DNA of 64,000 nt, from positions 1-64,000 of the IMG/VR virus record IMGVR_UViG_3300020176_000010; one strand, 5' to 3'. The notes beneath the pieces were generated by a model that saw only the letters and a program-made list of their open reading frames with translations, ran no database searches and was not told where the DNA came from. Numbering within the stretch: the first letter of the stretch is position 1; each line of letters begins with the position of its first letter. The stretch comes from a virus. Of the stretch, positions 6,209-27,243 are shown piece after piece. The position numbers and the translations under genes were made by a program.

Positions 6209-7927
6209 ATGGCACTCTTTGAACTAGCCCGAGGCCTTGCCGCCGGATACAACGGATTCAACGAAGGTGTTGACGCCGAGAAGAACCGCCAGCAGGCCGA
6301 TGCTGACCGCAAGTACCAAGCCGAGCAGCGCGCCTACCAACAGAGTCAGCAGAAGCGCACGATCGACGACCAGCGCCGCGCAGACGAGGCGCGCACCGCA
6401 CTGCAGGGTGTCGACATCATGCGGCCACAACCGCAAGTGCTGCGCGACGTCGCCAGCATCCAGGCCAAGGCTGGCAACATCGTTGAAGCACTGAAGACCC
6501 AAGAGGCGGCAACCGCGTCTGCTTACAAGCAGTCCGCCGAGCGCTTTGCGCAGATCCGCGCCGCGGCGCCAAGCATGACCGCTGAGCAGCTAGCCAAGGC
6601 GGCCGCTGACGCATTCAACTCCGACTACCTTCCGTCCAAGCTGAATGGCTACCAAGTCAACCCCGATGGCTCCATCGACATCGACGTAGCATCGCCAGAT
6701 GGCCGCTCACTGAAGCACCGCTTCAAGGACAAGAACGAGCTCCTGACTGGCATGGAGGCGCAGTACAGCCCTGACACCTACAACGCCTTCATCAAGGCCC
6801 AGCGCGACGCTGCGATCAAGGCGCAAGAGAAGATCGCCGAGCCTCGCGTGGTCTCCCCTGGGGCAACGCTCACAATCGGCGGCAAGCCCGTCTACGAAAA
6901 CCCGAATGGTCGCAATGTGATTGGCCAGGCCGAGGATGGAAGCCTCGTCTACGGGCAGCCAACTGGCGGCGGATCTCGCGCAAGCTCCGGCGGGTCTGGC
7001 GGAAAGGCTGCGAAGCCGGCTGACCCGCTGGCTCCGTACGTAGACGCATTTGAGTTCTCTTCCACAAAGGGTGAGAACAAGCTGCAAGAGGACGCTCTGG
7101 CGCGCGGTCAGAGCTACCTGCCAGCCCTTGCTCAGCAGGGCGTCAACCCGCAGGTTGCCGCGCTCATTGCTCGCGACGCAGCTGTTGATCCTACCAAGAC
7201 GGAGCTGCAGATTGATCACAGAACTGGCCGCGTTGATCGCATCTACCGCAACAAGGATGTCAATGGCGGGGAGCCTGTTCGCATTGCTGAAAACGCCGGG
7301 ACCGTAGAAGACCTCGTCAAGCAGGCCGGCGGCAAGCCAGAAGTGATCAAGAAGGATGTGGAGACGATGCTCTCCAGGATGGTCTCTGAAGCGCCATCCG
7401 AAAAGCGCCAATCGATCATGGATAGCTACATCAAGCTGGCATCCGATCCTGCGAAGCGTCAGGAATTCTTGCAATCGCAGCTCAACGCCGGCAAGTCACC
7501 GGAGGCTATCAAGAACCTCGAGAGGCAGCTGTCCTTGATTGGCGCCTATGTCAAGCCTCAGCAGGAGGTCGCCAAGAGCGGCAATGCAAACAAAGGCGAG
7601 TCACTGCTTAGTCGCCTTCGCAGCACAGGAGGGTTGTTTGGTCAGCAGCAAGCCATGCCGCAAACAGATCCAAACTCACCAGCCGGAAGGGCTCAGGCTC
7701 GACAGCAAGAGCTGCGCACACAGAAGGCAGAGAGCGAGCGGCAGTCTGCTGCACAGAAGGCGGAGCGCGAAAAGCTCACAGCCGCAGAGTACAGCGCAGA
7801 TCGCCAGGCTGTTGCCGATGGCAAAATGACAGCCCTCGAGCTTGCGCAAAAGTGGGACTCACGTCGCCGCGAGCTCTCCGTAAAGGATGCCGCCGATCTG
7901 CAAAATGCAGAGCGCCAAATTCGCTGA
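6209..7927 (+). CDS. Internal virion / DNA ejection protein
   Basis: 572 aa helical Q/A-rich protein; GLAAGY N-terminus; position before giant gene. Confidence 0.6.
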   Translation: MALFELARGLAAGYNGFNEGVDAEKNRQQADADRKYQAEQRAYQQSQQKRTIDDQRRADEARTALQGVDIMRPQPQVLRDVASIQAKAGNIVEALKTQEAATASAYKQSAERFAQIRAAAPSMTAEQLAKAAADAFNSDYLPSKLNGYQVNPDGSIDIDVASPDGRSLKHRFKDKNELLTGMEAQYSPDTYNAFIKAQRDAAIKAQEKIAEPRVVSPGATLTIGGKPVYENPNGRNVIGQAEDGSLVYGQPTGGGSRASSGGSGGKAAKPADPLAPYVDAFEFSSTKGENKLQEDALARGQSYLPALAQQGVNPQVAALIARDAAVDPTKTELQIDHRTGRVDRIYRNKDVNGGEPVRIAENAGTVEDLVKQAGGKPEVIKKDVETMLSRMVSEAPSEKRQSIMDSYIKLASDPAKRQEFLQSQLNAGKSPEAIKNLERQLSLIGAYVKPQQEVAKSGNANKGESLLSRLRSTGGLFGQQQAMPQTDPNSPAGRAQARQQELRTQKAESERQSAAQKAEREKLTAAEYSADRQAVADGKMTALELAQKWDSRRRELSVKDAADLQNAERQIR

Positions 7928-13900: not shown

Positions 13901-16900
13901 AGAGAACATCCTGGCCCAGGCCGGGTGGTACAAGTCGATGCGCGCCCGCCTTCGCCATGAGTTCGGCGGCCTGGGCGACCTGTTCGCAGACCTGCTTGGC
14001 GCTACCAGCCCCAACACTCCAGTGCGCGACAACTGGACCAACGCCGTGGACTCTCTGCGCCGCGCCACGCGTGGCGACTTCGACCAGCTGATCCCTGCAT
14101 GGGAGGCGTGGGCGGATGACATCGATGCGCGCGAGACCGAGCTGCGAGCCTGGTTCAATGGCCAAATGGCAGACGGCAAGAGCAAGAAGGCCATCAAGGA
14201 ATCCGCTGAGTACAAGGAAAAGCTGGACAGCCTGATCGCTGCGCGCGAGCTGCCTGACGCCCTGCTGCCTACCAAGGAGACCGGCAAGAAGTACGGCTTC
14301 AACGGCCGCAATGTGGCGCGCGCCATGGTCGATCTGTGGCGTGTCGTGCGCGATGCGGACCCCGACGTCAAGCGCGGCGGCACGGCGCCAAAGGCAGTGA
14401 ACTTCAGCGGGAACCTGATCGGCTTCCGTGAGCGCGCAACCATCGACGTGTGGGCGGCCCGCATGCTGCAACGCCTGTCTGGCGGATTGCGCGTGCCGAG
14501 CATGGCTGAGGTCGGCGTGAGTGGCGAGATGCGCGCAGATGGCGCCACCACACTGCAGTTCGGGTTTGGCCAGGACGTCTTCTCGGATGCGGTGAAGCGC
14601 ATCCGCAAGGATCCAGAACTCAAGACCAACGACACGCTGGCCAAGATCAACGATGACGACCTGCAGGCTGTGGTCTGGTTCGTTGAGAAGGAGATCTGGA
14701 CAGCCAACAACTGGACCAGCGCAGCTGGCGAGGGCGGGTCGTTCGAGCTCGAGGCCAGCCTGTCTGGCTCCGCGGAACAGGAGCGCATCAAAGAGCTGCG
14801 CCGCATCATCGACTCCAGCAAGTCCAAGCCGGACGCAAAGGCCAAGGCCCGCGCGGAGCTGGCCAAGCTGGAGCGCACCGTGGACCGCTTTGTGGGCGGC
14901 CTGTCTACGCAGATGTCGATGGACACCCAGGGCATCGACTTTGTGCCACAGGACTCCGACATGGCTCGCCTGTCCAACGAGGTGACCACCGCGATCTACG
15001 AAGACGATAGCGCCACCGCCGTGCTGGCATCGAAGGCCCTGGCCACCGAGGGCCGGTACGGAGGCATCGAGCGCTCACTCGACCTCGAGGTTGTTGCGCG
15101 TGAAGGCTACAAGCCGGCGGCGCTGTGGAAGAAGATGCTCGAGATCGCCGATCGCGCCAAACAGGACAGCACGTTCCTGTCCCGCGTGCTGCGCGACGAC
15201 GAGGAGGTTGATATGCTGCGCCACCGCCCTGGCGTGGAGATCTATTTCCGTGAGGCCGCATCGCGCGAAAAGCTCGAGCGGGTGCTTGGAGAGTTGGCCA
15301 ACGAGGGGGTCGAGTTCCTGACTGTCATCGTTGATGGTCGCCGCATGTCTGACGCCGTCAAGGGCCAGATGCCACCGGCCGTCGGTGTGCGCATGCAGTA
15401 CGTTCCAGAGTTCGATCAGCGGTATGGTTTCGACGACCTTAGCTCCTTGGATGATGCTGCTCTTGCAGCTAAAATCCAGGACAAGGCCGCGGAAATGACC
15501 GCACTTGCAGACCGCGTCGCAAAGGCGGTCGGGAATGTCTCATTTGCCAGCCAGTTCTGGTACGAGACTGATGTGGCGTTTGGCCACGAATACCAGGAGA
15601 AAATTGATGCCATCACAACTGGAAGTGCTGAAGGATCAGCTGCGCAGGCTGGAGGCCGAGAATGGGCCGGACGGACCGCTCGCGCGGGGCTTGAAAGCGC
15701 GAATCGCCAAGCTCGAGAAACCGCACGCACCCAACCCGGTGGAGATGTACTCGATCGGAACCAGGCCGGCACCAATGACGCAGGACGGCCAGGCGCTACC
15801 GGAAGCGCCAACTCGGGATCAGTTCAAGACGCAGGCGGAGTTCGAAGAAGCGCTCGGCGGATGGCGCTCGATGGTGGGCAGGATCAGAGGATTGAAGGCC
15901 GGGAAGAAGACGGAAGCCTGACCGGCCTGCCGCGCGACTTCAACATCGCCGGCCAGCAGATCCGCGCAAGCCACTGGGCGCCCGCCGAGGCTGTCGCGCG
16001 CAAGTACATGGCTGATGCTGGGCTGGAGTACACACCACCAGCCCGCTACGCCAAGGTCGATCCAGAGCGCGCAAAGCGCATCGCGGCCGAGTACGACAAG
16101 CTCAAGCACGACCCACAAAATCCGCAGGTCAAGGCGGCCTATGAAGCCCTAGCCCGCGAGACGATCGCACAGTACAGCGCCGTCATCGATAGCGGCCTGC
16201 AGGTCGAGTTCATCGACTTCGCCAAGCAGGGTGACCCATACGCAGCAAGCCCGCGCCTCATGACGGAGGATGTGCGCAACAACAACCACATGTGGCTGTT
16301 CAGCACACGCGACGGGTTTGGCTCTGACGCCGAGTTTGACCCGATCGACAACCCGCTGCTCGCCGAGACGGAGTTCACCATCAGTGGCCAGAAGGCCTTG
16401 GTGAATGACTTGTTCCGCGTGGTGCACGACTACTTTGGCCACGTCAAGGAGGGCGTCGGCTTCCGCGCAGACGGCGAAGAGAACACCTGGCGCGCGCACA
16501 GCTCGATGTTCTCACCACTGGCGCAGCGCGCACTCACCACCGAGACGCGGGGGCAGAATTCCGCAGTGAACTTTTCCTCGAAACCTCTGTTCCAAGTGAT
16601 TGGTGAACACAGGGCGAGGATGCTTTATGACGAAGGATATGCGCGGAGGGTTGCGCGAGACGAAGCCGGTGACGTACGCCGGCGTGACGTACAGGACGTC
16701 AAGGGATTGTCCGGTGTATCCGGTCTGGAACGGGATGATGTATCGGTGCTTCAACCCCAAGGCTCCGAGCTTCAAGCACTACGGCGCCCGGGGAATAACG
16801 GTGGATCCACTGCTGCAGACTCTGCAGGGGTTCCTGGACGTGATGGGGCTTCCGCCGACACCGGCACACCAGATCGACAGGATCAACAACGACGGCAACT

Positions 16901-17303
16901 ACGAGCCGGGCAATCTGCGCTGGGCAACGCCAACGGAGAACCTTCGCAACAAGCGAACCTCTCGGATGTTGACGCACAACGGCAGGACGCAGGCGATGTC
17001 GGCATGGGCCGAGGAGCTAGGGCTGTCGACGCAGGCACTCAAGGCTCGGCTCGACAGGTACAACTGGACAGTCGATCAGGCACTCGAGACGCCTCTGGGG
17101 ACGGGCGGGAGCCGCTTTGGAAAACGATCACCGTAGGTGAGCACAACAGAACCGCCAGCTCCGGCGACACGCACTACGCCGACCAGAAGGTTGGCCTGCT
17201 GCCACAGTGGGTCAGCGAAGAAGGTCGTCGCGATTCAACGCCGGCCGAATACAATCAGCGCATCGAGGCGATGAAAGATCTGATCGCCTGCCTCCGCAAC
17301 TAA
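7944..17303 (+). CDS. Giant polyvalent virion protein 1 (glucosaminidase, InPase-like, HExxH metallopeptidase, ART-PolyVal, further unnamed domains)
   Basis: 3119 aa; GQWGLETGWG..NNLGNIK..GYAEDPDY (GH73-like, ~8090-8500); ENPQGSTRSGVD..YGYI..DGDKVDIY (~10800-11250); HELMH (11607-11621); FWKWFGDS..YHHT..EQIKSALGNRGTFD (~12250-12830). Confidence 0.85.
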   Translation: MAQQDFSDIASLIPDAQPSAATKPAAQQQASEFSDISALLPDAAPAQSGVDGFVAQYRPLAERVAKQAGVAPEAILGQWGLETGWGKSVIPGTNNLGNIKDFSGGGVLATDNMTGSRDAYRKYGSAEDFGDDFAGLLARRYKSAIGSGQNAERYFTALKTSGYAEDPDYVKKGVAATQMAARAMGSAAPASLQAKSEYGSIQPQPPRSTFDAIKDMGSALWQGAKSTARSVGATGSAYIGNLSDVELAAEAQKSDVANNPAALQSLQGEIARRKAANPNAGILDAAADVIGAALQNKEGMAQMVANQAPNSAVALGGAWAGGKAGAAVGSAFGPAGTVVGGVLGGLAGMFLGNAAMETGGKAIEKAEGGFTPQERTEAIEEGAVKAGVITAVDAATFKLGGAIASSLNKGAIRAGARAEAKVLADAGINIADGAEIVAALAKNPALRKTAIEAGEKAAKAASSTASRIGTAGTLLTTETLGEGVGEYGGELAATGQADPYDAALEAISSFSQSAPQAAMSMVQSASNRLDTKAIVAAAPEMAPVIEKAATPNSPLSRAAMAANTPEVVAQRQAERSAQAGALGDASAAEAAPAAAKDAGVRLAELEAIAKGTPSQQVTDESGNPLTIPGEPGRFFTQEEKAEYDQLVQMRDATEKVRNADKPQVDEISTRVEEISASIRENGTLQAMRDAGENTNALLKDLAIAKSKSTAAAQREQALARVEFALGMSDQLMPARQPREAADPIQAQLSNPQISEVDREELSINYFASKNQALPEKTRQRALERAQEIVGRYAAPSTGRAEGDLSPAVLADIAPQPGSPEEALRQAERFDSGAYQFKAEGFPDEAAELELQADAARKEAAVRREAIELANRVEQVPAPAVATPAGPGPAALRKRKATLRQLVDNGLGRVERRNDGFFLVSQNGRQEFKLDGMADAQLARTAIADSIRDGAAKANTNPTEGQKQAGNYKVGEIKFDGLTLAVENPQGSTRSGVDPNGERWETVMPANYGYIRGSAMAADGDKVDIYLPNNARSGSPAWIIDQYNDDGSFDETKTVLGVRTAEEATRIYDAGYSDGSGPRRRGAVTEMSIEDFKAWANSAAAKKPAGAPRVMDEQAAIAASAAADGLRVTGTMPVRIDGETRNIGLVSELPDAESIARGGRATRISKKQGEVLQAIAQAFGKRVQFFYEPKNVGAGDGFIMNNDRSTIYLNTVSGRSPIVVFGHELMHQLKRDNPEAHAAIAAVVERRVNRQAADNLYGKELGYSGDSVMEELISDIGGDLMSDKTFWSDVMDEVHAQNDTKAARKIIVKLADFLMRSIEALSRNLRSYADTGAGSKLVDDMTEIRAAFRGALADYIKQQGISKPAMQAEILKAGQDAKRSAGRTTKSDVQGDMFQGDMIGPDEKVATGRVIDSKGGTEEGGNVDSAGRQIAPTRQALENFWKWFGDSDAVDDNGRPSLYHHTTRNDFDKFEANRVTKNSGTFDEWETSRAAIFFTESLEDSQAYGKAGKGFEPGANVMPVYLKAENILDMTSGYLPSYGRDAARIEEAGLNPRYMDRFDWSKFDDEDGKEMVDALKRAGYDAVKFWDQNPDTQEDFQALAVFSPEQIKSALGNRGTFDSADANITRSASRDDALTVEAYHFSRQPRNVLSTGAYGSGLQGSDRDAIMDHPDKRLRKRLYFYVNKGTGVRPESGVGGIAHKAILSNIYDSDADAKRLKQGRDKRAFESAVLDAGYDGYLARLDGTQPGQVILLGQKTVEPEVLGQRTQIPEAKAVPQPAQRSMDAGDRIMANSSLPAGRMDLGMWSRVLRGMMPDVHAQLDAAGVFDGDGSFYKDELVARARKSQPIAAQSKGREAKIEKLAPVAQRGQRVVGQRVTLSADEKQAIEFSAETTGVSAKEITRVVREHKLAHPTSQGWAPLNFAKTKIEKGKIAYEYDKVPYSFNADADGRALKPGTTEYDRRVGAVARRMTDEVRRVHQRAADGDKNAENILAQAGWYKSMRARLRHEFGGLGDLFADLLGATSPNTPVRDNWTNAVDSLRRATRGDFDQLIPAWEAWADDIDARETELRAWFNGQMADGKSKKAIKESAEYKEKLDSLIAARELPDALLPTKETGKKYGFNGRNVARAMVDLWRVVRDADPDVKRGGTAPKAVNFSGNLIGFRERATIDVWAARMLQRLSGGLRVPSMAEVGVSGEMRADGATTLQFGFGQDVFSDAVKRIRKDPELKTNDTLAKINDDDLQAVVWFVEKEIWTANNWTSAAGEGGSFELEASLSGSAEQERIKELRRIIDSSKSKPDAKAKARAELAKLERTVDRFVGGLSTQMSMDTQGIDFVPQDSDMARLSNEVTTAIYEDDSATAVLASKALATEGRYGGIERSLDLEVVAREGYKPAALWKKMLEIADRAKQDSTFLSRVLRDDEEVDMLRHRPGVEIYFREAASREKLERVLGELANEGVEFLTVIVDGRRMSDAVKGQMPPAVGVRMQYVPEFDQRYGFDDLSSLDDAALAAKIQDKAAEMTALADRVAKAVGNVSFASQFWYETDVAFGHEYQEKIDAITTGSAEGSAAQAGGREWAGRTARAGLESANRQARETARTQPGGDVLDRNQAGTNDAGRPGATGSANSGSVQDAGGVRRSARRMALDGGQDQRIEGREEDGSLTGLPRDFNIAGQQIRASHWAPAEAVARKYMADAGLEYTPPARYAKVDPERAKRIAAEYDKLKHDPQNPQVKAAYEALARETIAQYSAVIDSGLQVEFIDFAKQGDPYAASPRLMTEDVRNNNHMWLFSTRDGFGSDAEFDPIDNPLLAETEFTISGQKALVNDLFRVVHDYFGHVKEGVGFRADGEENTWRAHSSMFSPLAQRALTTETRGQNSAVNFSSKPLFQVIGEHRARMLYDEGYARRVARDEAGDVRRRDVQDVKGLSGVSGLERDDVSVLQPQGSELQALRRPGNNGGSTAADSAGVPGRDGASADTGTPDRQDQQRRQLRAGQSALGNANGEPSQQANLSDVDAQRQDAGDVGMGRGARAVDAGTQGSARQVQLDSRSGTRDASGDGREPLWKTITVGEHNRTASSGDTHYADQKVGLLPQWVSEEGRRDSTPAEYNQRIEAMKDLIACLRN
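15447..15475 (+). promoter_or_regulatory. Sigma70-like promoter internal to giant gene
   Basis: TTGGAT-N17-TAAAAT about 130 nt upstream of nested ORF 15607. Confidence 0.55.
15607..15921 (+). CDS. Nested overprinted protein (+1 frame within giant gene), 104 aa
   Basis: AGGAGA RBS 6 nt before ATG; protein-like MPSQLEVLKDQLRRLEAENG...; host-frame translation over this span is low-complexity G/A/R-rich. Confidence 0.65.
   Translation: MPSQLEVLKDQLRRLEAENGPDGPLARGLKARIAKLEKPHAPNPVEMYSIGTRPAPMTQDGQALPEAPTRDQFKTQAEFEEALGGWRSMVGRIRGLKAGKKTEA
16627..17136 (+). CDS. HNH homing endonuclease overprinted in +1 frame within giant gene
   Basis: GAGGA RBS; W..MMYRC.NP....FKHYGARGITV...IDRINNDGNYEPGNLRWAT...N.RNKR motif. 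Confidence 0.85.
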   Translation: MTKDMRGGLRETKPVTYAGVTYRTSRDCPVYPVWNGMMYRCFNPKAPSFKHYGARGITVDPLLQTLQGFLDVMGLPPTPAHQIDRINNDGNYEPGNLRWATPTENLRNKRTSRMLTHNGRTQAMSAWAEELGLSTQALKARLDRYNWTVDQALETPLGTGGSRFGKRSP

Positions 17304-17315
17304 GGACCGAAGTAC

Positions 17316-20300
17316 ATGGCCCAGATTACGAACTGCCTGAAGCTCATCTCCCGCATGCCTGAGAGCGACCAGGACGCACTGGTTTCTCGACTTGACGAGC
17401 TGCAGGCTCTCGGCGTTCCTGCGCAGCGCGCACAGGTGCAGGCGGCCATCGACCTGATGTCGCGCCTGGAGCGCGAGGCAAACCCGCAGGGTATTCAACG
17501 CAGCGCAGCGCGCGACGTCACCGAGACGCCGGAGTTCCGCAGCTGGTTTGGCGATAGCAAGGTGGTGGATGCCGATGGCAAGCCGCTTGTCGTGTACCAC
17601 GCAACCACATCGAACATTAAAAAGTTCTCGACGAAGAAGTCAGCAGGCGGCTTCTACTTCACGCCAAACGCCGAAGATGCATACCCAAGCAAGCGCGGCG
17701 AAATGACGTCCGAGCGCGGTCTCAATGTGATGCCAGCCTACCTGGCCATCAACAGCCCACTGCGGACCAGCGACCCAGCCGATTGGCACAGGCTTGACGC
17801 AGACCGACGCTCCAGCATCGAGGATCGCGGATTTGACGGCGTCATTGTTGAAAACGAAGACGGGTCTGTGCGCGAGTACATCGCCTTCGAGCCCAGCCAG
17901 ATCAAGTCCGCCATCGGAAACCGGGGCACCTTCGACCCGGCCGACCCCGACATCACCCGCAGCGCATCCCGCCTGCCCGCCGGTGTTGAAATCATCGAGG
18001 TCGATGATGGCTTCGACGCCATGCAAGACGGCAAGCGCATCGGCCGCCTGCGCGACAACCTGCCACGCGGCGCCGCTGAGCGGCTGGACGAAAACGCCAG
18101 CGTCGACATCGTCAAGGTCGAGAACGAGTTCAAGGGCCAAGGTGTTGGCGCGGCCCTGTACGACGCCTTCTACGAGAAGCACGGCGGCCGCATCGCGCCA
18201 TCCGGCAAGACCTCGCCAGAGGCCTGGGCCCTGTGGAAGCGCAAGTTCCCTCAGAAGGTGCAGGAGTTCGTGCAGGCCGAAGCTCAGCGCATCCGCGACG
18301 GCGCAGACCCATTCATGGTCATGCGCAACATCACCGACAAGGACGTAGCGCGCGACGTGGCCATTGCGGCGGGCGACAACGTTATCCGCAGCGTGGCGCG
18401 GAATGTGGTCGATAGCGCCGAGTTCAAGCGCTGGTTCGGCGACAGTAAGGTGGCGGATGCCGAGGGTAAGCCGCTGGTGGTGTATCACGGCAGCCGATAC
18501 AACGCCGACATCAAGAGGTTCAGCGCAGCAAAGTCCGAGCAATCGGCGGCGGAGCGCGGAATCTACTTTACCGACAGCGCAGATCATGCAGATCAATACG
18601 CGAGCCAGTGGGGAGACGCCAGCCCAGAAGACGGCGGCTCAATTTACCCCGTCTATCTGAAGATTGAAAACCCCTACGTTTCCAATGCGTGGGAGTGGAA
18701 CATGGGCACAGACATCACGCCAGCCCAAGCTCGCAAACGAGGGCATGATGGCTACGTGATTCAAAACCACGAGGGCGGCACAACCTACATCGCCTTCCGC
18801 CCCGAGCAGATCAAGAGCGCCATCGGCAACCGCGGCACGTTCGACCCATCCGACACCGACATCACGCGCAGCGCCGCGCGCCCCGAATTCTTCAGCCAGC
18901 TGCAGCGCTCCATCGAACAAGTGCCAGACCGCCTGGCCACCATGTCTGCGCCACAGTGGAAGCTCTGGCTTGACGCCAATGCAGCCAAGCTGGGCGTAAA
19001 GAAGGACGAGATTGAGTGGTCAACAATCAAGGATTACTTGACACTTCGTGGCAAGGACAAGGTCACGCGCGACGAGTTGGCGGCATACCTGTCTGACAGC
19101 GGTGTGCGGGTGCGGGAGGTTGTTCTTGGTGGCGGCGGCACTGAAAAGGTAACCTTGGTTCGAGACTCAACCAGGCAGGACGCATGGGGAGAAGTCGTCG
19201 TCTATCGAAGCTCCGACGGGGCTTTCGTTGTCGAGAATGGAATTGGTGGGCAGAGCTGGTCGGTTCAGGATGCCGATTCATACGACAGCGACTACTCAGA
19301 AGACGATGGAAGCTACGCAGGAAGCTTCAGCTCACGCGAAGCTGTAGAGTCTTTCATCAATGGCCAGACGCAGGCCGCCGACCCATATTACTCCGGCGTT
19401 GGATCGAACCCAGCAACCAAGTATGGCGCCTATACCGTGCCCGGCGGCCCGCTCTCGCGCGATACTGAGATCCTGACCCGTGATGGCTGGATGCGGATGG
19501 ATGAGGTTCAGATCGGCGACGAGGTCATGACGCGACGAGATGAAGACGGCGGCCTGGAGTGGCAGCCAGTTGAAGCGCTGCCGACCGTTTACGCAGAAAA
19601 GCTATACCACTTCAAGAATCAATCGATCAACATGCGCGTCACGCCATGCCACAAGATGGTAGTCAAGCGTCGGCGCAGATCAACGGGCGAGATCGTTCGC
19701 GTCACGGCAGAGCAGCTTTGGGGCATGTCGGAGATGGTAGCCCCACTCACGGGGTCATGGGGCGGCGGTGAATTCTCTGACCTGTTTGATCAAGATCCTG
19801 GAGATGTCGCTGAGCTGCTTGGGTGGTTTATTGCAGAAGGCCACTACAAGACGGAGGCGGATGGCAAGAAGTCAACCATCGGTATTGCTCAGTGCCGATC
19901 AGCAAACAGCGACAAGTGCGCCCGTATCGAGTCCCTATTGGGGAGGATGGGTATCGCCTGGAATTACTCTGGCGGTCAGTATTGGCTGGGTGTCAAGAAG
20001 ATGTCTGCCGATCTGGTGCAGCTTCTGCATGCACAAGGGAAATCTGCTGAAAAGTATGTGCCTGGCTTCATGTTCAATGCGCCAGCCAGCGTCATTCAGC
20101 GCATGCTTGATGGCCTCTTGCTTGGCGATGGCTGCCTTGTAAAGCAGAATGGCCGAAAGCCTCGGTGGACATACCACACGAAATCCAAGCAGCTGGCAGA
20201 TGATGTCCAGGTGCTTGCTCTTCTCGTTGGTAAACGTGGATCCGTGTCTCGGCGCAAGACGGGTCTTTACACGGTCACCATCAATGATAAGCAGTGGGCG

Positions 20301-20879
20301 AGCATCGATGATGCGAAGCACGCGGTCGTCGATTACAACGACATCGCGTACTGCGTCACTGTGAAGAATCACTCGATCTACGTTCGTACCAATGGCGTCG
20401 CAGCGTTCACTGGAAACTCCAACTACCGCGAGGTGCTGATCACGTTGCCTCCGATTGGCCGGGTGAGATACACCGAGGAAAATGTCGTCGCCATCGATGA
20501 CGCGGACGACCCAAATCGTTCCCGCTACTTCTGGCGCTTCAAGGTTCCAGGCAATGAGCTACAGATCTCCAAGCAGGTTTACCGCACCCAGGAGGAGGCG
20601 AAGGCCTACATCCTGAGCGAGAAGCAGCCAGAGCCTCCGGCCGACAAGAACTACCGCTCCAGCCACTGGGATGCGCTGAATGTTATCGCGCATATCAGGG
20701 TGGATGATAGGGTGGACTCCGATGGAAAAAAAGTGCTCTTTGTGAATGAGCTGCAAAGTGATTTTGGCCAGGACTATCGCAAGGCAAAAGAAGCAATCGA
20801 GAGCGCTGTTGACACCGATTTTATGGGCATCGTCGAGCGCATGAAAAAAGCAGGCGTACTGGAGGTTGTTTGTGATTAA
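17316..20879 (+). CDS. Polyvalent virion protein 2 (ART-PolyVal, GNAT, ART-PolyVal, N-terminal part of an LPD-type domain; contains intein)
   Basis: 1187 aa; AAGGA RBS; two F..WFGDSKV.D..GKPLVVYH...QIKSAIGNRGTFD units; FKGQGVGAALY; YTVPGG/SNYREVLITLP...SSHW...ELQSD. Confidence 0.85.
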   Translation: MAQITNCLKLISRMPESDQDALVSRLDELQALGVPAQRAQVQAAIDLMSRLEREANPQGIQRSAARDVTETPEFRSWFGDSKVVDADGKPLVVYHATTSNIKKFSTKKSAGGFYFTPNAEDAYPSKRGEMTSERGLNVMPAYLAINSPLRTSDPADWHRLDADRRSSIEDRGFDGVIVENEDGSVREYIAFEPSQIKSAIGNRGTFDPADPDITRSASRLPAGVEIIEVDDGFDAMQDGKRIGRLRDNLPRGAAERLDENASVDIVKVENEFKGQGVGAALYDAFYEKHGGRIAPSGKTSPEAWALWKRKFPQKVQEFVQAEAQRIRDGADPFMVMRNITDKDVARDVAIAAGDNVIRSVARNVVDSAEFKRWFGDSKVADAEGKPLVVYHGSRYNADIKRFSAAKSEQSAAERGIYFTDSADHADQYASQWGDASPEDGGSIYPVYLKIENPYVSNAWEWNMGTDITPAQARKRGHDGYVIQNHEGGTTYIAFRPEQIKSAIGNRGTFDPSDTDITRSAARPEFFSQLQRSIEQVPDRLATMSAPQWKLWLDANAAKLGVKKDEIEWSTIKDYLTLRGKDKVTRDELAAYLSDSGVRVREVVLGGGGTEKVTLVRDSTRQDAWGEVVVYRSSDGAFVVENGIGGQSWSVQDADSYDSDYSEDDGSYAGSFSSREAVESFINGQTQAADPYYSGVGSNPATKYGAYTVPGGPLSRDTEILTRDGWMRMDEVQIGDEVMTRRDEDGGLEWQPVEALPTVYAEKLYHFKNQSINMRVTPCHKMVVKRRRRSTGEIVRVTAEQLWGMSEMVAPLTGSWGGGEFSDLFDQDPGDVAELLGWFIAEGHYKTEADGKKSTIGIAQCRSANSDKCARIESLLGRMGIAWNYSGGQYWLGVKKMSADLVQLLHAQGKSAEKYVPGFMFNAPASVIQRMLDGLLLGDGCLVKQNGRKPRWTYHTKSKQLADDVQVLALLVGKRGSVSRRKTGLYTVTINDKQWASIDDAKHAVVDYNDIAYCVTVKNHSIYVRTNGVAAFTGNSNYREVLITLPPIGRVRYTEENVVAIDDADDPNRSRYFWRFKVPGNELQISKQVYRTQEEAKAYILSEKQPEPPADKNYRSSHWDALNVIAHIRVDDRVDSDGKKVLFVNELQSDFGQDYRKAKEAIESAVDTDFMGIVERMKKAGVLEVVCD
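19449..20417 (+). mobile_element. Intein (class 3-like, Pro1) with LAGLIDADG endonuclease, 323 aa
   Basis: Block A PLSRDTEILTRDGW; block B VTPCHKM; LLGWFIAEG and MLDGLLLGDG; block F AYCVTV; ends FTGN|S; removal restores YTVPGGSNYRE. Confidence 0.85.
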
Positions 20880-21507
20880 GACCTTCTATGTTTACAGGCA
20901 CTACCACACCGACAGCGGACTCCCATTTTATGTTGGCAAGGGGACCAGACTATCCAAGAGTGACGGCTATCGCAGGGCTTTTGATGTGCATCGAAGGAAG
21001 GCCTCATGGAAAAGCGCGTCCGCAAAGCACGGCCTAGTGGTAGAGGTTGTGGCCGAGTTCTTTGCTGAGGCGGATGCTCTTGCGTTTGAGGCCGATTTGA
21101 TAGCTATGCATGGTCGCCGGGATCTTTGTGCTGGCACGCTCATAAATCACACCGATGGGGGTGAGGGGTGCTCTGGGTTTAAGCACAAGCCGGAGTCAAT
21201 CGAGCGCATTCGGATGGCAAGCCAAGGGCGCCGCCTTGGCGATGCGTCACGCCGCAGAATCTCCGATGCGCTAACCGGTAGTCGGCACCCTGGCTACGGC
21301 CGCCGGCAGTCGGCAGAAACGTCCGAGCGAAAAAGGGTGGCGATGCTAGGTAAAAACTTAAATGGTCGCTCTGTGCTGGATCGCTCAACAGGCGCTGTGT
21401 ACAAATCAGTTCTTGCGGCATCAAGAGCAACAGGAATACCGGCACGAACACTCGCCAACTATCTGCATGGCGAGAGGAAGAATAGAACAGAAATGGAGTT
21501 CGCATAA
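20872..21507 (+). CDS. GIY-YIG-like homing endonuclease with NUMOD3-type repeats
   Basis: GGAGG RBS plus GTG overlapping upstream stop; FYVYRH...PFYVGKG...E..LI...INHTDGGEG; H.PESIERI, S.ETSERK. Confidence 0.8.
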   Translation: MIKTFYVYRHYHTDSGLPFYVGKGTRLSKSDGYRRAFDVHRRKASWKSASAKHGLVVEVVAEFFAEADALAFEADLIAMHGRRDLCAGTLINHTDGGEGCSGFKHKPESIERIRMASQGRRLGDASRRRISDALTGSRHPGYGRRQSAETSERKRVAMLGKNLNGRSVLDRSTGAVYKSVLAASRATGIPARTLANYLHGERKNRTEMEFA

Positions 21508-24500
21508 TGGCCTGCCGATACACCTACCAGGGCAAGACCTACGAGGCCCACGAATTCGACGACGTGCTGCGCGCTATGGCGCCAATGGATGCGGAGAAGT
21601 TCATGCCTACCGTGAAGAGCATTCCATCAGCGCCACTGATCTCCGACACCAAGGCCTGGGCCGGCCTCGCCCTGAAGCGCGCCATCATGATGGCCGTGGA
21701 GGAGGGGCACGACAAGATCGCTTTGATCACCGGGCAGCAGGCCGCGGATCTCTATGACCTGAGCAAGCAGATCAGCAGGGTCGAGTTCTCGGACGCCAGC
21801 AGCGGAGGCGTCAGTGATGCCAACCTTGGCGCGCCAGATGGATCTGGGAATCTGTCGGCATTCGACCTTGACGGCAAGCGTGTCATCGACACCTATGTCA
21901 GCGCCGACAAGATCGAGGACTATGTTGGCAAGGAGGTTGCGCGCAAACTACTCGAATCCGAGCCAAGGGCCGTCCGCGCCGCCGGAGTTGGCCTGCGTCG
22001 CCGCTCCCTTGATGGCCTAGACCTCAAGGTCGGTGGCGAAGGCATGCGCGCCTTCTACGACCAGATCATCCCCCAGGTGGCGCGCGACGTGCTGAAGAGG
22101 CTGGGCGGCGGGCAACTGGCCACAGCGAAAATCACAACCGACAAGAATGGCTGGCACATCACGCCACCCAGCCAGACGGCCAGCGGAAAGTGGATGGTCA
22201 AGAGCAGCGACTACAACTCCGTCGGCCTCAAGTTCGACACAGAGGCCGAGGCGCGCGCCGCCCTGGCCGAGAAGCAGGAAACGAGCGAGCAGGTTTCGCT
22301 CGACATCACGGACTCCATGCGCGAGAAGGTGGCCTCCGGCGTGCCGCTGTTCAGCCGCCGCCGTGGCTGGGATGCATTCCCTGACGCGATCATCGCGACA
22401 CCGCCGTCCACACAATCAAGCGACCCATCGTACGCAGCAGCCAAGGGCGGCGACATGAAGGCCGCGCTCGAGCTCGTGGACCGCGTGATGCCCGATGACA
22501 TCGAGCAGCGCGTGCGCGCAACCATTGGTGATGCCAAGCCTATCGTTGCCGCCGTGCACGCCGAAGAGGCCGCCGGCCGCAACAAGATCCCCTTGGCCAC
22601 CGCCTTCGTGCTCGGAGAGCGCATGGGTCTGCAGGTCGACGAGAAGCTGGTTCAGGCATCACGCGCCAAGCGCACCGGCTCCGACGGCATGGCCCGCCTC
22701 GGCGTGCAGCCAGAGTTTGCCGGCGAAGTGGAGCGCGACGCAGACTACCTGCTGGTCGATGACACCCTGGCCCAGGGCGGCACGCTGGCGCAGCTCAAGA
22801 CCCACATCGAGGACAACGGCGGCCGCGTCGTGGGGGTATTCGCGCTGAGCGGCAAGCAATACTCTGCTAAGATTTCCCTTGATAATGCAACACTTAATGA
22901 TGTCAGGGCGAAGTATGGATCGATCGAAGACTGGTGGAAAGGCGAGCTCGGCTACGGCTTCGAAGGCCTCACACAGTCCGAGGCCCGCTACATGCTCAAC
23001 TCCGGGCTTTCGCCTGAAGCCCTGCGAGATCGAGTCGCTGCAGCACGACAAGCGGCTGGCGCTGGAGATGGCGCGCAGCGTTCGGAAAGCGTTGGCGATC
23101 AAGAAGTAGTACGCAGCATGCCGCGCGTTCCTGGTTTGAACGCCGGGCCTGTCGAGAGCACGACAGGAGACTATGGCCGCGAGTACACGCCGCAGCAGTT
23201 GGCCATGTTCAAGAACACCGGCCGCACCACGCAGAAGCCGTCCCTCGTTGAGCGCCTAAAAGAGGCTCGCAAAGACTTGGGCAAGAAGATGGCCCAAGGC
23301 ATCGTCGATCAATTCCGCCCGCTGCGCGATCTCGGCGGCAACGCCTACACGCTGGCCCGCTTGTCAAAGGGCGCGGCCGGCGCGTTCGAGGCGCTGCTTG
23401 GCCACGGCAAACTGAAGATCGTCGATGGAGCCTACGACGCAGACACCAGCGGCGGCTTCATTGACACCGTCGGCAAACCCCTTGGCCGCGAGATCGAAGA
23501 CTTCATGTGGTGGGTAGCCGCCAACCGCGCGGACAGCCTTTCTCTGCAGGACCGCGAGAACCTCTTCACTGACGACGACATTGCCGCGGGCAAATCGCTG
23601 GCAGACGGAGACCTCGAGTTCGACTACCTCCTGCAGAGCGGCGCAACAACGCGCGACCGCAAGGCCGCCTACGAGGACTCGCTGAAGAAGTTCAACGCGT
23701 TTGGCAAGAATGTGCTGGACATCGCCGAGGAGAGCGGACTGATCGATGGAGAGAGCCGCAAGCTGTGGGAGAGTGAGTTCTACGTGCCGTTCTACCGCGT
23801 GAGCGAAGAGGATGGCTCATTCATTGGCGCAAAGATCAAGGGCGGCCTGGCTCGCCAGCGCGCGTTCCACGAGCTCAAAGGCGGAAGCCAGAAGCTGAAC
23901 AGCGACCTGCTGGCGAACACCATGCGCAACTGGGCGCACCTGATCGACGCGTCTGCGAAGAACCGCGCAGCCAAGGCGACGCTTGAGTCTGCGCAGAATG
24001 TCGGCATCGCGCTTGAGGCTGACGCTGAGACCGTACGCCAGCTCGGAAAGTCGATGGGCGGCAAGGGTGGCACCGTTTGGTTCATGGACGGCGGCCAGCA
24101 GCGCCACTTCCTGGTTGGCGACCCATACGTGCTCGAGGCAATCAATAGCCTGGAGTACGCCGGCCTGCGCGGCCCACTGATGGACGCCCTTTCCACAATG
24201 AAGCACTGGCTGACCGTCGGCGTCACGGCGTCGCCAGCGTTCAAGATCCGCAACTTGATCCGCGACTCGATTCAGGCCATCAGCTTGAGCGGCCTGAGCT
24301 ACAACCCGGTGACCAACCTGGTTGAGGGCTACAAGGCCACAGATCGAGCAAGCCAGGACTACGTCTCTACGCTGGCATCTGGCGGCCTGATTCGCTTTGG
24401 CTCCATGCTGGAAGACAGCGCATCAGAGCGCGTACGGAGGCTTGTGAAGAAGGGCGTCGATGGCAACACCATCCTGGACAGCGAGAGCAAGGTGCAGGCC

Positions 24501-25712
24501 TTCTATGGGAAGTACCTTGAGCCAGCGATTGAGGCCTACCAAGAGATCGGCAACCGCGGGGAGGAGATCAACCGCGCCTCGCTGTACAAGCAGCTGCGCG
24601 CAAAGGGCGTAAGTCATGCGGAGGCATCCCTGATGGCGCGCGACCTTATGGACTTCAGCATGCAGGGAACGTGGACCAGCATTCGGTTCCTGACCCAGGT
24701 TGTGCCGTTCATGAACGCCCGCCTGCAGGGTATGTACAAGCTGGGCCGTGGAGCCATGGAGGATCCTCGTCGATTCGCCCTGGTTACCGGCGCCGTGGCA
24801 CTCATGTCTATCTCGCTGCTGGCGGCCTACGGCGATGACGACGACTGGAAAAAGCGCGAGGACTGGGATCGCGATGGATTCTGGTGGTTCAAGTTCGGCG
24901 GCACAGCATTCCGCATTCCGAAGCCATTCGAAATTGGCGCCATCGGCAGCCTTGCCGAGCGTGGAGTTGAGCTCTTCACCAACGACGAGTTCACCGCAAA
25001 GCGCTTCGGCAGCCGGGTGCTCCACCTGCTTGGCGACAACCTGGCCATGAACCCAATTCCGCAAGCTGTGAAGCCAATGCTGGACATCTACGCCAACAAG
25101 GACAGCTTCTCCGGCAGGCCGATCGAGTCGATGGGCATGGAGCGCCTGCAGTCCGAGTACCGCTACAACGTGCACACAAGCATGATCGCCAGGGGCGCCA
25201 GCTCCGCGCTGAATGCGGCAACGCGCACCGTTGGCGCGGAGGCCCTCAGCCCGGTGCAGATCGACTCACTGATCCGCGGATACTTTGGATGGCTTGGAAC
25301 CTTTGTGGTTGCAGGAGCGGATATGGCAGTGCGCCCACTCACTGACGAGCCAGCACGCCCACAGGCCGATTACCTGAAGGTGGTGTCACAGGGTTTCTTG
25401 AAGACCTTGCCAGAGCCTGGCTCAAAGTACGTGAGCGCCATGTACGACCAGGCAAAGGTAATCGAGCAGGCCTACGCCACGCACCGGCAGATGGTCAAAG
25501 AGGGCAAGGTCGACGAGGCGCGCGAGTTCGCGGCCGAGAACAAAGATCTGCTGGAGCGCCACCGCAGGATCGAGGGCGTCAAAGAGGCCCAGTCCAAGAT
25601 CAACAAGCGCGTGCGCGAGATCGAGCTCAGCGACATGGACCCAGCTCGCAAGGCCGAGGAGATCCAAAAGCTGCGCGATCAGTCGGGCAAGATCGCTCGG
25701 AAGGTTTACTGA
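21507..25712 (+). CDS. Polyvalent virion protein 3 (C-terminal part of split LPD-type domain, PRTase-like domain, LPD38)
   Basis: 1401 aa; P.AP...AW..LALKRAI..A.E.G.D...GEGMRAFYD; YLLVDDTLAQGGTL (PRPP-binding loop); RIPKPFEIG (LPD38 hallmark). Confidence 0.85.
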   Translation: MACRYTYQGKTYEAHEFDDVLRAMAPMDAEKFMPTVKSIPSAPLISDTKAWAGLALKRAIMMAVEEGHDKIALITGQQAADLYDLSKQISRVEFSDASSGGVSDANLGAPDGSGNLSAFDLDGKRVIDTYVSADKIEDYVGKEVARKLLESEPRAVRAAGVGLRRRSLDGLDLKVGGEGMRAFYDQIIPQVARDVLKRLGGGQLATAKITTDKNGWHITPPSQTASGKWMVKSSDYNSVGLKFDTEAEARAALAEKQETSEQVSLDITDSMREKVASGVPLFSRRRGWDAFPDAIIATPPSTQSSDPSYAAAKGGDMKAALELVDRVMPDDIEQRVRATIGDAKPIVAAVHAEEAAGRNKIPLATAFVLGERMGLQVDEKLVQASRAKRTGSDGMARLGVQPEFAGEVERDADYLLVDDTLAQGGTLAQLKTHIEDNGGRVVGVFALSGKQYSAKISLDNATLNDVRAKYGSIEDWWKGELGYGFEGLTQSEARYMLNSGLSPEALRDRVAAARQAAGAGDGAQRSESVGDQEVVRSMPRVPGLNAGPVESTTGDYGREYTPQQLAMFKNTGRTTQKPSLVERLKEARKDLGKKMAQGIVDQFRPLRDLGGNAYTLARLSKGAAGAFEALLGHGKLKIVDGAYDADTSGGFIDTVGKPLGREIEDFMWWVAANRADSLSLQDRENLFTDDDIAAGKSLADGDLEFDYLLQSGATTRDRKAAYEDSLKKFNAFGKNVLDIAEESGLIDGESRKLWESEFYVPFYRVSEEDGSFIGAKIKGGLARQRAFHELKGGSQKLNSDLLANTMRNWAHLIDASAKNRAAKATLESAQNVGIALEADAETVRQLGKSMGGKGGTVWFMDGGQQRHFLVGDPYVLEAINSLEYAGLRGPLMDALSTMKHWLTVGVTASPAFKIRNLIRDSIQAISLSGLSYNPVTNLVEGYKATDRASQDYVSTLASGGLIRFGSMLEDSASERVRRLVKKGVDGNTILDSESKVQAFYGKYLEPAIEAYQEIGNRGEEINRASLYKQLRAKGVSHAEASLMARDLMDFSMQGTWTSIRFLTQVVPFMNARLQGMYKLGRGAMEDPRRFALVTGAVALMSISLLAAYGDDDDWKKREDWDRDGFWWFKFGGTAFRIPKPFEIGAIGSLAERGVELFTNDEFTAKRFGSRVLHLLGDNLAMNPIPQAVKPMLDIYANKDSFSGRPIESMGMERLQSEYRYNVHTSMIARGASSALNAATRTVGAEALSPVQIDSLIRGYFGWLGTFVVAGADMAVRPLTDEPARPQADYLKVVSQGFLKTLPEPGSKYVSAMYDQAKVIEQAYATHRQMVKEGKVDEAREFAAENKDLLERHRRIEGVKEAQSKINKRVREIELSDMDPARKAEEIQKLRDQSGKIARKVY
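22885..23109 (+). CDS. Possible nested overprinted peptide (+1 frame) at end of PRTase domain; start uncertain
   Basis: Ends LKPCEIESLQHDKRLALEMARSVRKALAIKK; preceded by local AT-rich patch with TGcTAAGAT (22865-22873). Confidence 0.35.
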   Translation: MQHLMMSGRSMDRSKTGGKASSATASKASHSPRPATCSTPGFRLKPCEIESLQHDKRLALEMARSVRKALAIKK

Positions 25713-25915
25713 CAGCACGGGGCTGTGATGGCCCCGTATCTGATTGCCTGGAGGATGGATCCAACGATCCATCCGGCAGCCCCGAGGCAAACCATCCAGA
25801 CGACAGCCGTGCCAAACAAGTCCTTGATGCGAGCCTTTGTGGCACCGCCAAGGATTGCAAAAAGACCAAAGAAAGCGAGTAGTGCGAGCATTGCCGATTT
25901 TATAGAGGTCGGCAA
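25706..25915 (-). CDS. Small two-TM membrane protein
   Basis: 69 aa with two hydrophobic stretches, convergent with giant gene. Confidence 0.5.
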   Translation of the reverse strand: MPTSIKSAMLALLAFFGLFAILGGATKARIKDLFGTAVVWMVCLGAAGWIVGSILQAIRYGAITAPCCQ

Positions 25916-26169
25916 TGCTTGAGTCTCTTTTCTGCGCTAAATCGTGCAGAACTCGTGCAGCTGTCGCTTTTTTAAGACGTATGCCTCATGAGCCTTTTCT
26001 GGTGCCTCGTAGAAGCCTGCGTGGTGCTGCTTGCCATTCAGGTTCACCTTTGCTCCCCATGCGTTTCGCTGCGCAGACCAGTAGACGCCAAGCAGGCCCG
26101 ATGCCTTGTTGTGCGACCACGCCTTCCGCGTGTTCTGCGCATTCTGGGACTTTTGACATCCTCTCCGGC

Positions 26170-27243
26170 CTAAACGCCGGAGATTCCTTCTGCAAGACGG
26201 CGATGTCCCGCCGCGAGAATGTTTTTTGCTGCATTCACGTCCCGGTCGTGTACCGCGCCGCAGTCGCTGCAAACCCATTCTCTTATTCGCAAACCTGCTC
26301 TACCTTTCGGACTGCTGGCGGGTATGGCCCCGCAGCACGAACAAGTCTGGGTGGTGTAGCTTTCGTTGACTACCTCGAAGACGATACCGGCCTGCTGGCT
26401 CTTGTATTCCAACATCGTCTTCAAACTGGCCCAGCCCGCATCCAGCGTGCTCTTGGCCATCTTGGTTTTGACCAGCTTGGCGCTGGCCACGTCGCCCACG
26501 AAGATGGCGGCGTTGTTTTTCACAAGGTTCGTGGTGAACTTATGGATTGCATCCTTGCGGCGATTCGCAATCTTGGCGTGTATCGCCTTGACGCGCTTTT
26601 TCTTCCGCGCCCGTTGCGCGACCGCCAGATGCGGCTCAAGCTCACGGAACCACCGTCCTTGCAGCTTGTCGCCGTCGCTTGTGGTGGCGCACTCTTTCAG
26701 ACCCAAATCGATGCCAACAGCCGATGCCCCCTGGCTGGGAAGAGCCTCGACCTCGACGGCAACATTGAAATACCAGCGCCCACGGCTGTCTTCGTTGAAC
26801 GATCCGGCTCGCAGCTCAAAGCGGCTCAGGCCATAGCTGTCCCACAGGCTGAATTTGTGCCCACCAAACTGGACTTGGCCCGACTTGTACTTGGCGTGCC
26901 CGCCCTTGAATGGAATCCAGCCAAGCGAATACTTGGGCGACTTCGGGTTGCTGACGCGCCAGTTGAGGCGGGTCTTCTTGAACTGCTTGCGGCGTGTGGC
27001 GTACTCCACGCACACCAGTTGCACTGTGCCGCTGCCGACCGTAACGCCATCGCACCTGCTGTAGCCGGCGGTGAGCTTCTGTAGGTCGTAGGCGCTCAGC
27101 CACTTGCCACGCTCACGGATGGCGCGGCTGCTGGTTTCGTTGGCGAAGTTGAACACCTGATTCACGTCGCGCGCCATGCGCCGAAGCACACTGGCGTGCT
27201 TGTCCTTGATGCGAATCTTGAGTGTCTTCACTGCCGTCTGCAT
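26170..27243 (-). CDS. tnpB: TnpB RNA-guided nuclease
   Basis: GIDLG, VNESYTTQTCSCCG, WVCSDCGAVHDRDVNAAKNI motifs; 357 aa from MQTAVKTLKIRI. Confidence 0.9.
   Translation of the reverse strand: MQTAVKTLKIRIKDKHASVLRRMARDVNQVFNFANETSSRAIRERGKWLSAYDLQKLTAGYSRCDGVTVGSGTVQLVCVEYATRRKQFKKTRLNWRVSNPKSPKYSLGWIPFKGGHAKYKSGQVQFGGHKFSLWDSYGLSRFELRAGSFNEDSRGRWYFNVAVEVEALPSQGASAVGIDLGLKECATTSDGDKLQGRWFRELEPHLAVAQRARKKKRVKAIHAKIANRRKDAIHKFTTNLVKNNAAIFVGDVASAKLVKTKMAKSTLDAGWASLKTMLEYKSQQAGIVFEVVNESYTTQTCSCCGAIPASSPKGRAGLRIREWVCSDCGAVHDRDVNAAKNILAAGHRRLAEGISGV

Follow-up and report, generated by a model that had tools for sequence, protein, structure and literature searches.

Podophages have to load several megadaltons of internal protein and deliver them in order, and the way in which they do so is under debate. 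We describe three large genes, P1, P2 and P3, in a 64-kb stretch of viral DNA (hereafter the window) that forms the start of the 81,140-nt IMG/VR virus record IMGVR_UViG_3300020176_000010 and has a G+C content of 60%. The three genes lie on the + strand in one common reading frame. Their products bear short terminal modules, each containing one Cys: tail-A at the C-terminus of P1, head-A at the N-terminus of P2, tail-B at the C-terminus of P2 and head-B at the N-terminus of P3. The modules themselves, their conservation, their co-occurrence and the type-specific adjacency of tails and heads are established at the level of sequence. By analogy with a disulfide bond seen in cyanopodophage A4, we consider it likely that P1, P2 and P3 dock heterotypically through these modules and are locked by disulfides into a chain of about 5400 residues.

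Cysteines at the ends of P1, P2 and P3

P1 ends with YNQRIEAMKDLIACLRN (final residues KDLIACLRN), and C3116 is the sole Cys among its 3119 residues. Its TAA stop codon (17301-17303) is followed by a 12-nt spacer (17304-17315) and then by P2, which starts with MAQITNCLKLISRM and has Cys at positions 7, 778, 860, 868, 940, 1013 and 1186. The five internal ones all fall within an intein, leaving only Cys7 and Cys1186 in the remainder of P2, and an intein-less P2 homologue of 788 aa (P0002) likewise has Cys7 and Cys787 only. P3, with 1401 aa, carries Cys3 only. An earlier note made from the sequence of the window had claimed a single Cys in P1, a P2 gene 12 nt beyond the P1 stop, Cys only at the two termini of P2 outside its intein and Cys3 alone in P3, and all of these claims are confirmed by the Cys counts and the coordinates.

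Chance was assessed against a baseline of 1.7% Cys in the remaining crude open reading frames (ORFs) of this genome. At that rate 53 Cys would be expected in P1 against one observed (P ~4e-22), and 24 in P3 against one observed (P ~1e-9). Given the Cys counts, the probability that all four terminal Cys lie at most seven residues from the relevant ends is ~1.5e-9. Depletion and terminal placement of Cys are thus far beyond chance. A chance pattern or an annotation artefact, for which the small size of the motifs is the only argument, can be regarded as a negligible explanation in view of these probabilities and of conservation across hundreds of clusters.

For head-A, a profile of 58 positions built from seven P2-type N-termini was searched against 1.84 billion representative proteins and gave 203 matches at E<=1e-3, including 53 at E<=1e-10. 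In nearly all of the matches listed the module occupies residues 1-57, in proteins of 1000-3400 aa. The set examined here comprises 148 proteins, namely the 150 matches listed plus P0003 and minus three repeat-type false matches (P0086, P0093 and P0111), and 142 of them have a Cys at position 4-12, most commonly at position 7. Among the 78 head-A proteins of at least 1000 aa (138,148 aa in total), the module Cys is the only Cys in 71, two others have a second Cys within the last six residues, and the internal Cys frequency is 0.0145%. The module falls into two subfamilies, a window type with the pattern C[LM]K[LV][IV]S[RK]M.E.DQDALL.RLD and a second type with CI[RK]KAGKAL..DADAIREI. Connector modules are only 16-45% identical, yet exactly one Cys is kept in each.

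Neither of the two head-A modules nor head-B gave a tblastn match in 50,697 records of cultured phages; the window type had no match in prokaryote genomes and only two relatives in IMG/VR. The second type was found in prokaryote genomes on one contig of a metagenome-assembled genome (L146), and JGI metagenomes gave a single locus (L081). As a separate candidate, a lipoprotein signal was considered for the head-A Cys, as positions -3 to -1 resemble a lipobox (L/I/M/F, then S/T/A, then mixed). It was rejected because the 3-11 residues that precede the Cys contain no hydrophobic core.

Pairing of tails and heads

When the C-terminus of P1 was aligned with the C-termini of the partner proteins in 12 other records, the Leu at -3 and the Cys were the sole invariant columns, at identities to the window sequence of 9-34%. 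A tail-A profile matched 24 proteins, several of them from records already collected; in 24/24 the module stands at the extreme C-end, its Cys at a distance of 1-4 residues from the terminus, and all but one of these proteins (23) have a single Cys.

The arrangement of tail and head was followed in related phages, and whole records were fetched for the loci found with the second head-A subfamily. In G002, a close relative, the tail protein ends with ELIACLNK and, after 12 nt and in the same frame, the next protein begins with MAQLMSTSCLKL. In G001, also a close relative, the tail protein ends with LLECLKK, and MGALKLTACMKV follows 5.3 kb on, behind tail-fibre-like genes. In both genomes the counterparts of P2 and P3 form one protein, of 2173 or 2407 aa, whose sole Cys is Cys9. 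In the distant phage G003 (45% G+C) an end of DICKKLKACL is followed by one small ORF and then by MSLATCIRKAGKAL. Altogether, each of the 14 whole or partial records (G000-G013) encodes exactly one large tail-A protein upstream of, and on the same strand as, one head-A protein. Two further loci (L102 and L104) have the same order, giving 16 of 16 records with enough upstream DNA; L081, L094 and L146 were left out of this count, as their contigs end too soon. In G000-G013 the tail-A proteins have 656-3119 aa and a single Cys (two in G003), and the head-A proteins have 1054-2569 aa with Cys at 6-9. The earlier note had called for a survey of tail/head adjacency and had named a lack of conservation of the terminal Cys as a refutation; with Cys in 142/148 head-A and 24/24 tail-A modules and a pair in every one of the 16 records, the outcome agrees with its expectation.

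The tail-A and head-A genes are separated by 12, 12, 26 or 376 nt, or by 3.4-7.8 kb, and these gaps bear on the possibility that P1 and P2 are joined by stop-codon read-through or intein-like trans-splicing, or that the Cys are relics of a lost intein. The common frame and 12-nt spacer in the window and G002 might point that way, as might residues A|CL...TN|C, which faintly resemble intein ends. However, a distance of 3.4-7.8 kb separates the genes in G001 and in 10 further records, and they are out of frame in G013; the 1-4 residues after the tail Cys and 3-11 before the head Cys are too few for Hint blocks; no Asn is conserved before the head-A Cys, where N, G, S, A, T or K occur; and Pfam finds Hint/LAGLIDADG at the true intein only. 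Joining by any of these routes is therefore most improbable. Read-through or recoding of the P1 stop was ruled out, since most relatives have the two genes out of frame or at a large distance from each other. Trans-splicing and an intein relic were ruled out as well, with three residues after the P1 tail Cys, six before the P2 head Cys and Hint only at the true intein.

Several comparisons suggest that tail-A and head-A proteins correspond to one longer chain elsewhere. In G004, the tail-A protein matches phrog_10089 at 563-1131 and phrog_30335 at 709-899, and the head-A protein matches the same giant profiles at 3945-4631 and 2044-2867, respectively; the two proteins thus correspond to the front and back of one polypeptide elsewhere. 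The last domain of P1 has relatives at 63 loci. At 37 of them the open frame that contains the match (298-2205 aa visible) is entirely free of Cys, and only L002, L003 and L020 end with a Cys tail; all three of these genomes also encode a head-A protein. When the P1 tail region was compared with cultured phage records by tblastn, only the preceding domain was matched, in cyanophage and Octadecabacter phage proteins, and gp16 of the cultured Octadecabacter phage is an unsplit giant of 2986 aa with no Cys. In this phage (BD1; L149 11100-23445) a lysozyme protein of 949 aa is likewise free of Cys, and a 167-aa protein before these two has a single Cys, at residue 2.

The second junction, between P2 and P3, uses a different pair of modules. 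P2 ends with ...DFMGIVERMKKAGVLEVVCD, and the tail-B ending GVLEV.CD (once CE) closes 11 head-A proteins; P3 starts with MACRYTYQGKTYEAHEFDDVLRAM, the head-B pattern MACRYTYQGK. The first 100 residues of P3 gave 47 matches; 41 begin with the head-B module, with Cys3 or Cys4 in all 41, and 33 of the 41 have no further Cys (29 of the 32 that have at least 900 aa). In the remaining six matches the domain that follows sits inside a single chain, and Cys is missing at the corresponding point. The P2/P3 break interrupts a conserved domain within a variable insert. This domain is uninterrupted and lacks Cys in G001 and G002, as it does in most members of a set of eight more distant loci; L091 (short and Cys-bearing) is an exception. 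In the window a homing endonuclease gene stands between tail-B and head-B. In IMG/VR loci L144 and L145, MACRYTY begins 81 and 11 nt beyond a tail-B giant (at least 2912 and 2103 aa visible) with a single Cys at -2, and an endonuclease gene is missing. From the occurrence of the pair without this gene and the position of the break in a variable insert we conclude that the endonuclease of the window occupies a pre-existing seam and did not create the B tails.

In none of nine close junctions examined was tail-A found beside head-B, or tail-B beside head-A. Moreover, there are proteins made up of nothing but connectors: six of 107-126 aa combine head-A with tail-A (P0075, P0095, P0120, P0138, P0148 and P0053), and one of 116 aa combines head-A with tail-B (P0068). 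Four larger proteins of 311-697 aa combine head-B with tail-A (P0159, P0163, P0184 and P0185). The minimal adaptor P0075 was predicted to have three helices in its head and, behind a disordered linker, a beta-hairpin with a helix at the very end. A role other than linking is hard to see for such connector-only proteins. Pfam at E<=0.01 found nothing in the small ORFs between tail and head genes or in two mid-sized head-plus-tail proteins.

These pairs also bear on two other ways to account for the modules. In the first, a single Cys could equally give homodimers, and P1-P1 or P2-P2 links might be made within a symmetric core, since podophage internal core proteins are multimeric (in A4, five copies each of gp26 and gp27). 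Such homotypic links seem very unlikely in view of the tail/head co-occurrence in 16/16 records, the own-type partner in 9/9 close junctions, the location of the B pair inside one conserved domain that needs reassembly from halves, the existence of pure adaptors and the heterotypic bond in A4. In the second, head-A and head-B would be capsid-targeting signals, of the kind known from DarB of phage P1 and from internal proteins of T4, that bind scaffold or portal and not the upstream tail. Head-A is indeed restricted to N-termini, and in DarB the N-terminal 30 residues suffice to bring a reporter into the capsid (PMC9024508). Targeting leaves the matching C-terminal modules, their one-to-one co-occurrence and the adaptors unexplained, and we give it very little credence as a separate explanation; it could be merged with heterotypic docking if the target were the tail of the preceding protein.

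Two side observations concern the surroundings of the A pair. Where tail and head are separated by tail-fibre-like genes, a small ORF with an acidic and then hydrophobic end (..EDEE[IV]..[IV][IL]AA[VF]..) in many cases stands directly before the head-A gene and overlaps it (L081 3455-3751; just upstream of 3001 in L094, L098, L101, L102 and L105). It has no Pfam match and may be a fibre chaperone. In G002 (L077/L130-L131), a 615-aa protein (25323-27170) before the P1 homologue was called from MGCRMSAYN and has its sole Cys at residue 3; this start was probably called too early, because the counterpart in the window (6209-7927) has no Cys.

The nature of the joint

In the heterotypic docking that we favour, P1, P2 and P3 would be pieces of a giant Cys-free polyvalent injected protein that is a single chain in other phages. 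Tail-A, the C-terminal helix of P1 with a beta-hairpin before it in most relatives, would dock onto the three-helix head-A of P2, and tail-B of P2 onto head-B of P3. Outside the reducing cytoplasm the paired Cys would oxidise to interchain disulfides, giving a nearly linear chain of 3119 + 864 + 1401 = 5384 residues. The three proteins are probably packed in the phage head and injected; they would be packaged together at a fixed ratio, pass the tail as one threaded chain and be released as pieces by reduction in the host cytoplasm. Cys near the chain ends would be expected if the joint must pass a narrow channel.

Both halves of such a mechanism have counterparts among other proteins, as mechanistic analogies with no homology. 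In polyketide synthases and nonribosomal peptide synthetases, orthogonal pairs of short C- and N-terminal docking domains set the order of subunits. In AB toxins, an interchain disulfide holds the chains together until it is reduced in the target cytosol.

The A junction was modelled with AlphaFold2 as a read-through fusion in which the last 67 aa of P1 are joined to the first 95 aa of P2 through the stop, written as Q, and four linker residues, using an alignment of two sequences (the window and the same stretch of G002). The model contains helices at 48-67 (the tail), 70-83, 88-103 and 108-127 with a predicted local distance difference test score (pLDDT) of 70-78; the rest is disordered. VIA-align placed model residues 42-134 on solved four-helix bundles at Z 6-8.2, with generic bundles as the only matches. 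The model is consistent with a tail helix that completes a bundle with the three helices of head-A.

Several points weigh against a disulfide-locked chain. Assembly occurs in the reducing cytoplasm, and no thioredoxin-fold oxidoreductase motif is common to the 13 genomes scanned, with two isolated matches (G003 and G004); this negative is weak because it comes from a crude scan with the motifs WCxPC, CP[YFW]C, CPHC and C[VMI]QC and not from a profile search. Six of the 148 head-A proteins have no Cys; each of the six has a Met from inside the module as its first residue, in keeping with miscalled starts. The 16 records with both modules are mutually related, and the co-occurrence counts are therefore not independent events. 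Neither gp26 nor gp27 of A4 has a BLASTP match to the modules or to P1-P3 at E<=0.01, and hidden Markov model scores are at most 2.5 bits; likewise, PDB sequences gave no match to the module profiles. With no detectable similarity in sequence, the A4 precedent is therefore an analogy. The AlphaFold2 model, for its part, lends little weight because it is a covalent fusion from a shallow alignment of two sequences (mean pLDDT 53) with a common fold. Helical-bundle Z scores below ~13 may mean only a common arrangement, Foldseek returned no match at E<=0.001, and counting residues from the helix ends suggests that the two Cys are out of register in the predicted fusion.

Some of the same points would suit heterotypic docking with no disulfide, in which the Cys serve as packing residues, metal ligands or sites of other modification. 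In that case the failure to find an oxidising enzyme in the crude scan of 13 genomes, the poor Cys register of the read-through model and the apparent position of the head-A Cys on the hydrophobic face of helix 1 would all be accounted for. However, Ala, Ser or Val could serve packing, neither a conserved His nor a second Cys is available to form a metal site, and one Cys per module is kept at 16-45% identity in proteins otherwise purged of Cys (0.0145% internal). A real disulfide, moreover, connects the equivalent ends in A4. Docking with no disulfide accordingly appears unlikely, and a disulfide is the most likely state of the paired Cys by analogy with A4, the only phage in which this bond itself has been seen (gp27 Cys1715-gp26 Cys5).

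The earlier note had proposed that two orthogonal Cys-pair connectors link the three gene products, and this interpretation is partly supported. Two distinct and conserved module pairs are present, 9/9 close junctions are type-matched, and the AlphaFold2 prediction is in keeping with a helix type for the A connector; the covalent link stands on the analogy just given. The strand type that the note assigned to the B connector, and the role it gave the chain in packaging and ordered ejection, perhaps with release by reduction, are hypotheses.

If heterotypic docking holds, it would account for the persistence of giant injected proteins after selfish genes have split them. A more general proposal is that phages hold a modular 'beads on a string' system, with at least two orthogonal Cys-tipped connector families and adaptors, that forms ordered cargo trains cut by reduction; we regard this as possible rather than probable. 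Such a train could thread the tail as a nearly linear polymer, because the links lie within a few residues of the chain ends, and would then be cut apart by reduction in the host cytoplasm. In such a system gene fission, including that by homing endonucleases, and fusion would be tolerated because connectors can be gained or lost at the break. From a conserved connector code recognisable in sequence one could further predict the gene products that travel as a group and their order, and foreign cargo might be loaded into capsids with small orthogonal tags derived from it.

The locus and comparison with known systems

Coordinates of the three genes, their connector modules and the elements between them are collected in Table 1. 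The genes upstream of P1-P3 were assigned by PHROGs as internal virion protein, tail protein and virion structural protein.

Table 1. Features of the P1-P2-P3 region (coordinates in the 64-kb window).
Feature	Coordinates	Strand	Remarks
P1, giant polyvalent protein, 3119 aa	7944..17303	+	Pfam: N-terminal glucosaminidase/SLT, glycine zipper, InPase, ART-PolyVal; single Cys C3116
Tail-A connector module, P1 C-terminus (...PAEYNQRIEAMKDLIACLRN)	17187..17300	+	Cys codon 17289-17291; predicted helix
12-nt spacer P1/P2	17304..17315	+	same frame on both sides
P2, 1187 aa (864 aa minus intein)	17316..20879	+	two ART-PolyVal domains (Pfam)
Head-A connector module, P2 N-terminus (MAQITNCLKLISRMPESDQDALVSRLDELQALGVPAQRAQVQAAIDLMSRLE)	17316..17489	+	Cys7 codon 17334-17336; three predicted helices
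P2 intein, LAGLIDADG type, aa 712-1034	19449..20417	+	starts PLSRDTEILT, ends FTGN|S
Tail-B connector module, P2 C-terminus (...DFMGIVERMKKAGVLEVVCD)	20796..20876	+	Cys1186 codon 20871-20873
GIY-YIG/NUMOD3 homing endonuclease gene	20872..21507	+	between tail-B and head-B, overlaps both neighbours
P3, 1401 aa, LPD38 (Pfam)	21507..25712	+	single Cys, Cys3
Head-B connector module, P3 N-terminus (MACRYTYQGKTYEAHEFDDVLRAMA)	21507..21581	+	Cys3 codon 21513-21515

A Shine-Dalgarno-like AAGGA (17302-17306) overlaps the P1 stop and lies 9 nt before the ATG of P2. The intein bounds were mapped against the intein-less homologue P0002. The intein begins with Pro (PLSRDTEILTRDGW), has a Cys in AYCVTV near its end and closes with FTGN before a Ser, termini that we take to be a class-3-like pattern with Gly replacing the penultimate His; an intein with identical Cys spacing occupies this site in P0044. 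Around 20866-21507, the GIY-YIG/NUMOD3 ORF overlaps the stop of P2, with its GTG inside TGTGATTAA, and the start of P3, at TAATG; the insert that separates the P2 stop from the start of P3 measures 627 nt and is thus divisible by three. At the module boundaries of P2-type proteins one short motif is met repeatedly (GIQRSAARDVTETPEF, DITRSASR, NITRSATR, VIRSVARKASESPEF and DITRSAARPEF; window 17490-18400, P0002 and P0005) and may be a linker or a protease site. Finally, the last domain of P1 contains a +1-frame ORF of 178 aa (16600-17136), for which Pfam gave no match at E<=0.01.

The domain content of P1-P3 resembles that of polyvalent proteins, which are giant multidomain proteins thought to be delivered along with the DNA (PMC5512222; Iyer et al. 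2017). P1-P3 carry InPase, ART-PolyVal (three copies across P1 and P2 in Pfam) and LPD38 within a block of virion-structural genes, and relatives carry LPD39. The main text of the polyvalent-protein paper mentions no cysteine, disulfide, intein, split or homing, and terminal connectors are not described in it (PMC5512222).

Avoidance of Cys in ejected proteins has been reported for Schitoviridae. According to the available sections of that study, the ejection proteins (DEV gp71-gp73 and N4 gp50) contain 0.00075% Cys against 0.865% in proteomes, and the suppression was attributed to passage through the periplasm (PMC11445570). Those sections report no conserved terminal Cys, in contrast to the proteins of the window, which keep Cys at their partner-facing ends. 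Disulfides between virion proteins were also described for the tail of crAss001 (PMC10172136).

The nearest case for an endonuclease-split joint is Aeromonas phage Aeh1, which resembles the P2/endonuclease/P3 junction. There a homing endonuclease gene splits a gene (NrdA-a/mobE/NrdA-b), and the new C- and N-terminal tails are needed to assemble the active protein, with no splicing of RNA or protein (PMC3045599; Crona et al. 2010). In the window, an endonuclease gene divides P2 from P3 in this manner, whereas P1 and P2 are divided by the 12-nt spacer only. The Aeh1 tails are unique and charge-complementary, with no role for Cys, while the window tails belong to widespread families with a conserved Cys. 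Unlike those of Aeh1, connectors of the window types also occur with no endonuclease, in L144, L145 and the entire A pair.

The closest precedent for the joint itself is cyanopodophage A4 (Anabaena phage A-4L). In the accessible part of its cryo-electron microscopy study (PMC12002296; PNAS 2025), the internal core contains five gp26 and five gp27, the C-terminal helix of gp27 is inserted in the all-alpha gp26, and Cys1715 of gp27 forms a disulfide with Cys5 of gp26; that part treats the bond as a structural detail and describes no conserved family or rule. The A-4L record encodes gp27 with 1717 aa, whose sole Cys is Cys1715, and gp26 with 1114 aa, whose sole Cys is Cys5; the two genes lie on the same strand, separated by 5 nt. 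Further, gp29 has no Cys, and in gp28 (L148 25321-28497), which has 1058 aa, there are only two Cys, which lie near each other towards the C-terminus (HEGCATCAAL). A4 is like the window in having consecutive genes for giant ejection proteins, the upstream with its sole Cys C-terminal and the downstream with its sole Cys N-terminal. On the upstream side, a Cys near the C-terminus is found in P1 (C3116 of 3119) and in 16/16 records; on the downstream side, Cys7 of P2 is the sole one within ~10 residues of the N-terminus, the others being in the intein or at the other end. A4 differs in that it has a single junction and lacks polyvalent enzyme domains, a second type of connector and adaptors.

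In the literature searched, no conserved family of terminal-Cys connectors was found described, and the A4 link is the sole related description. This kind of link was thus already known once, in A4, and what is new here is two widespread connector families, the proposed three-protein chain, the adaptors and the tie to fission of polyvalent genes. If heterotypic docking with disulfides is borne out, the A4 bond would become one instance of a widespread rule.

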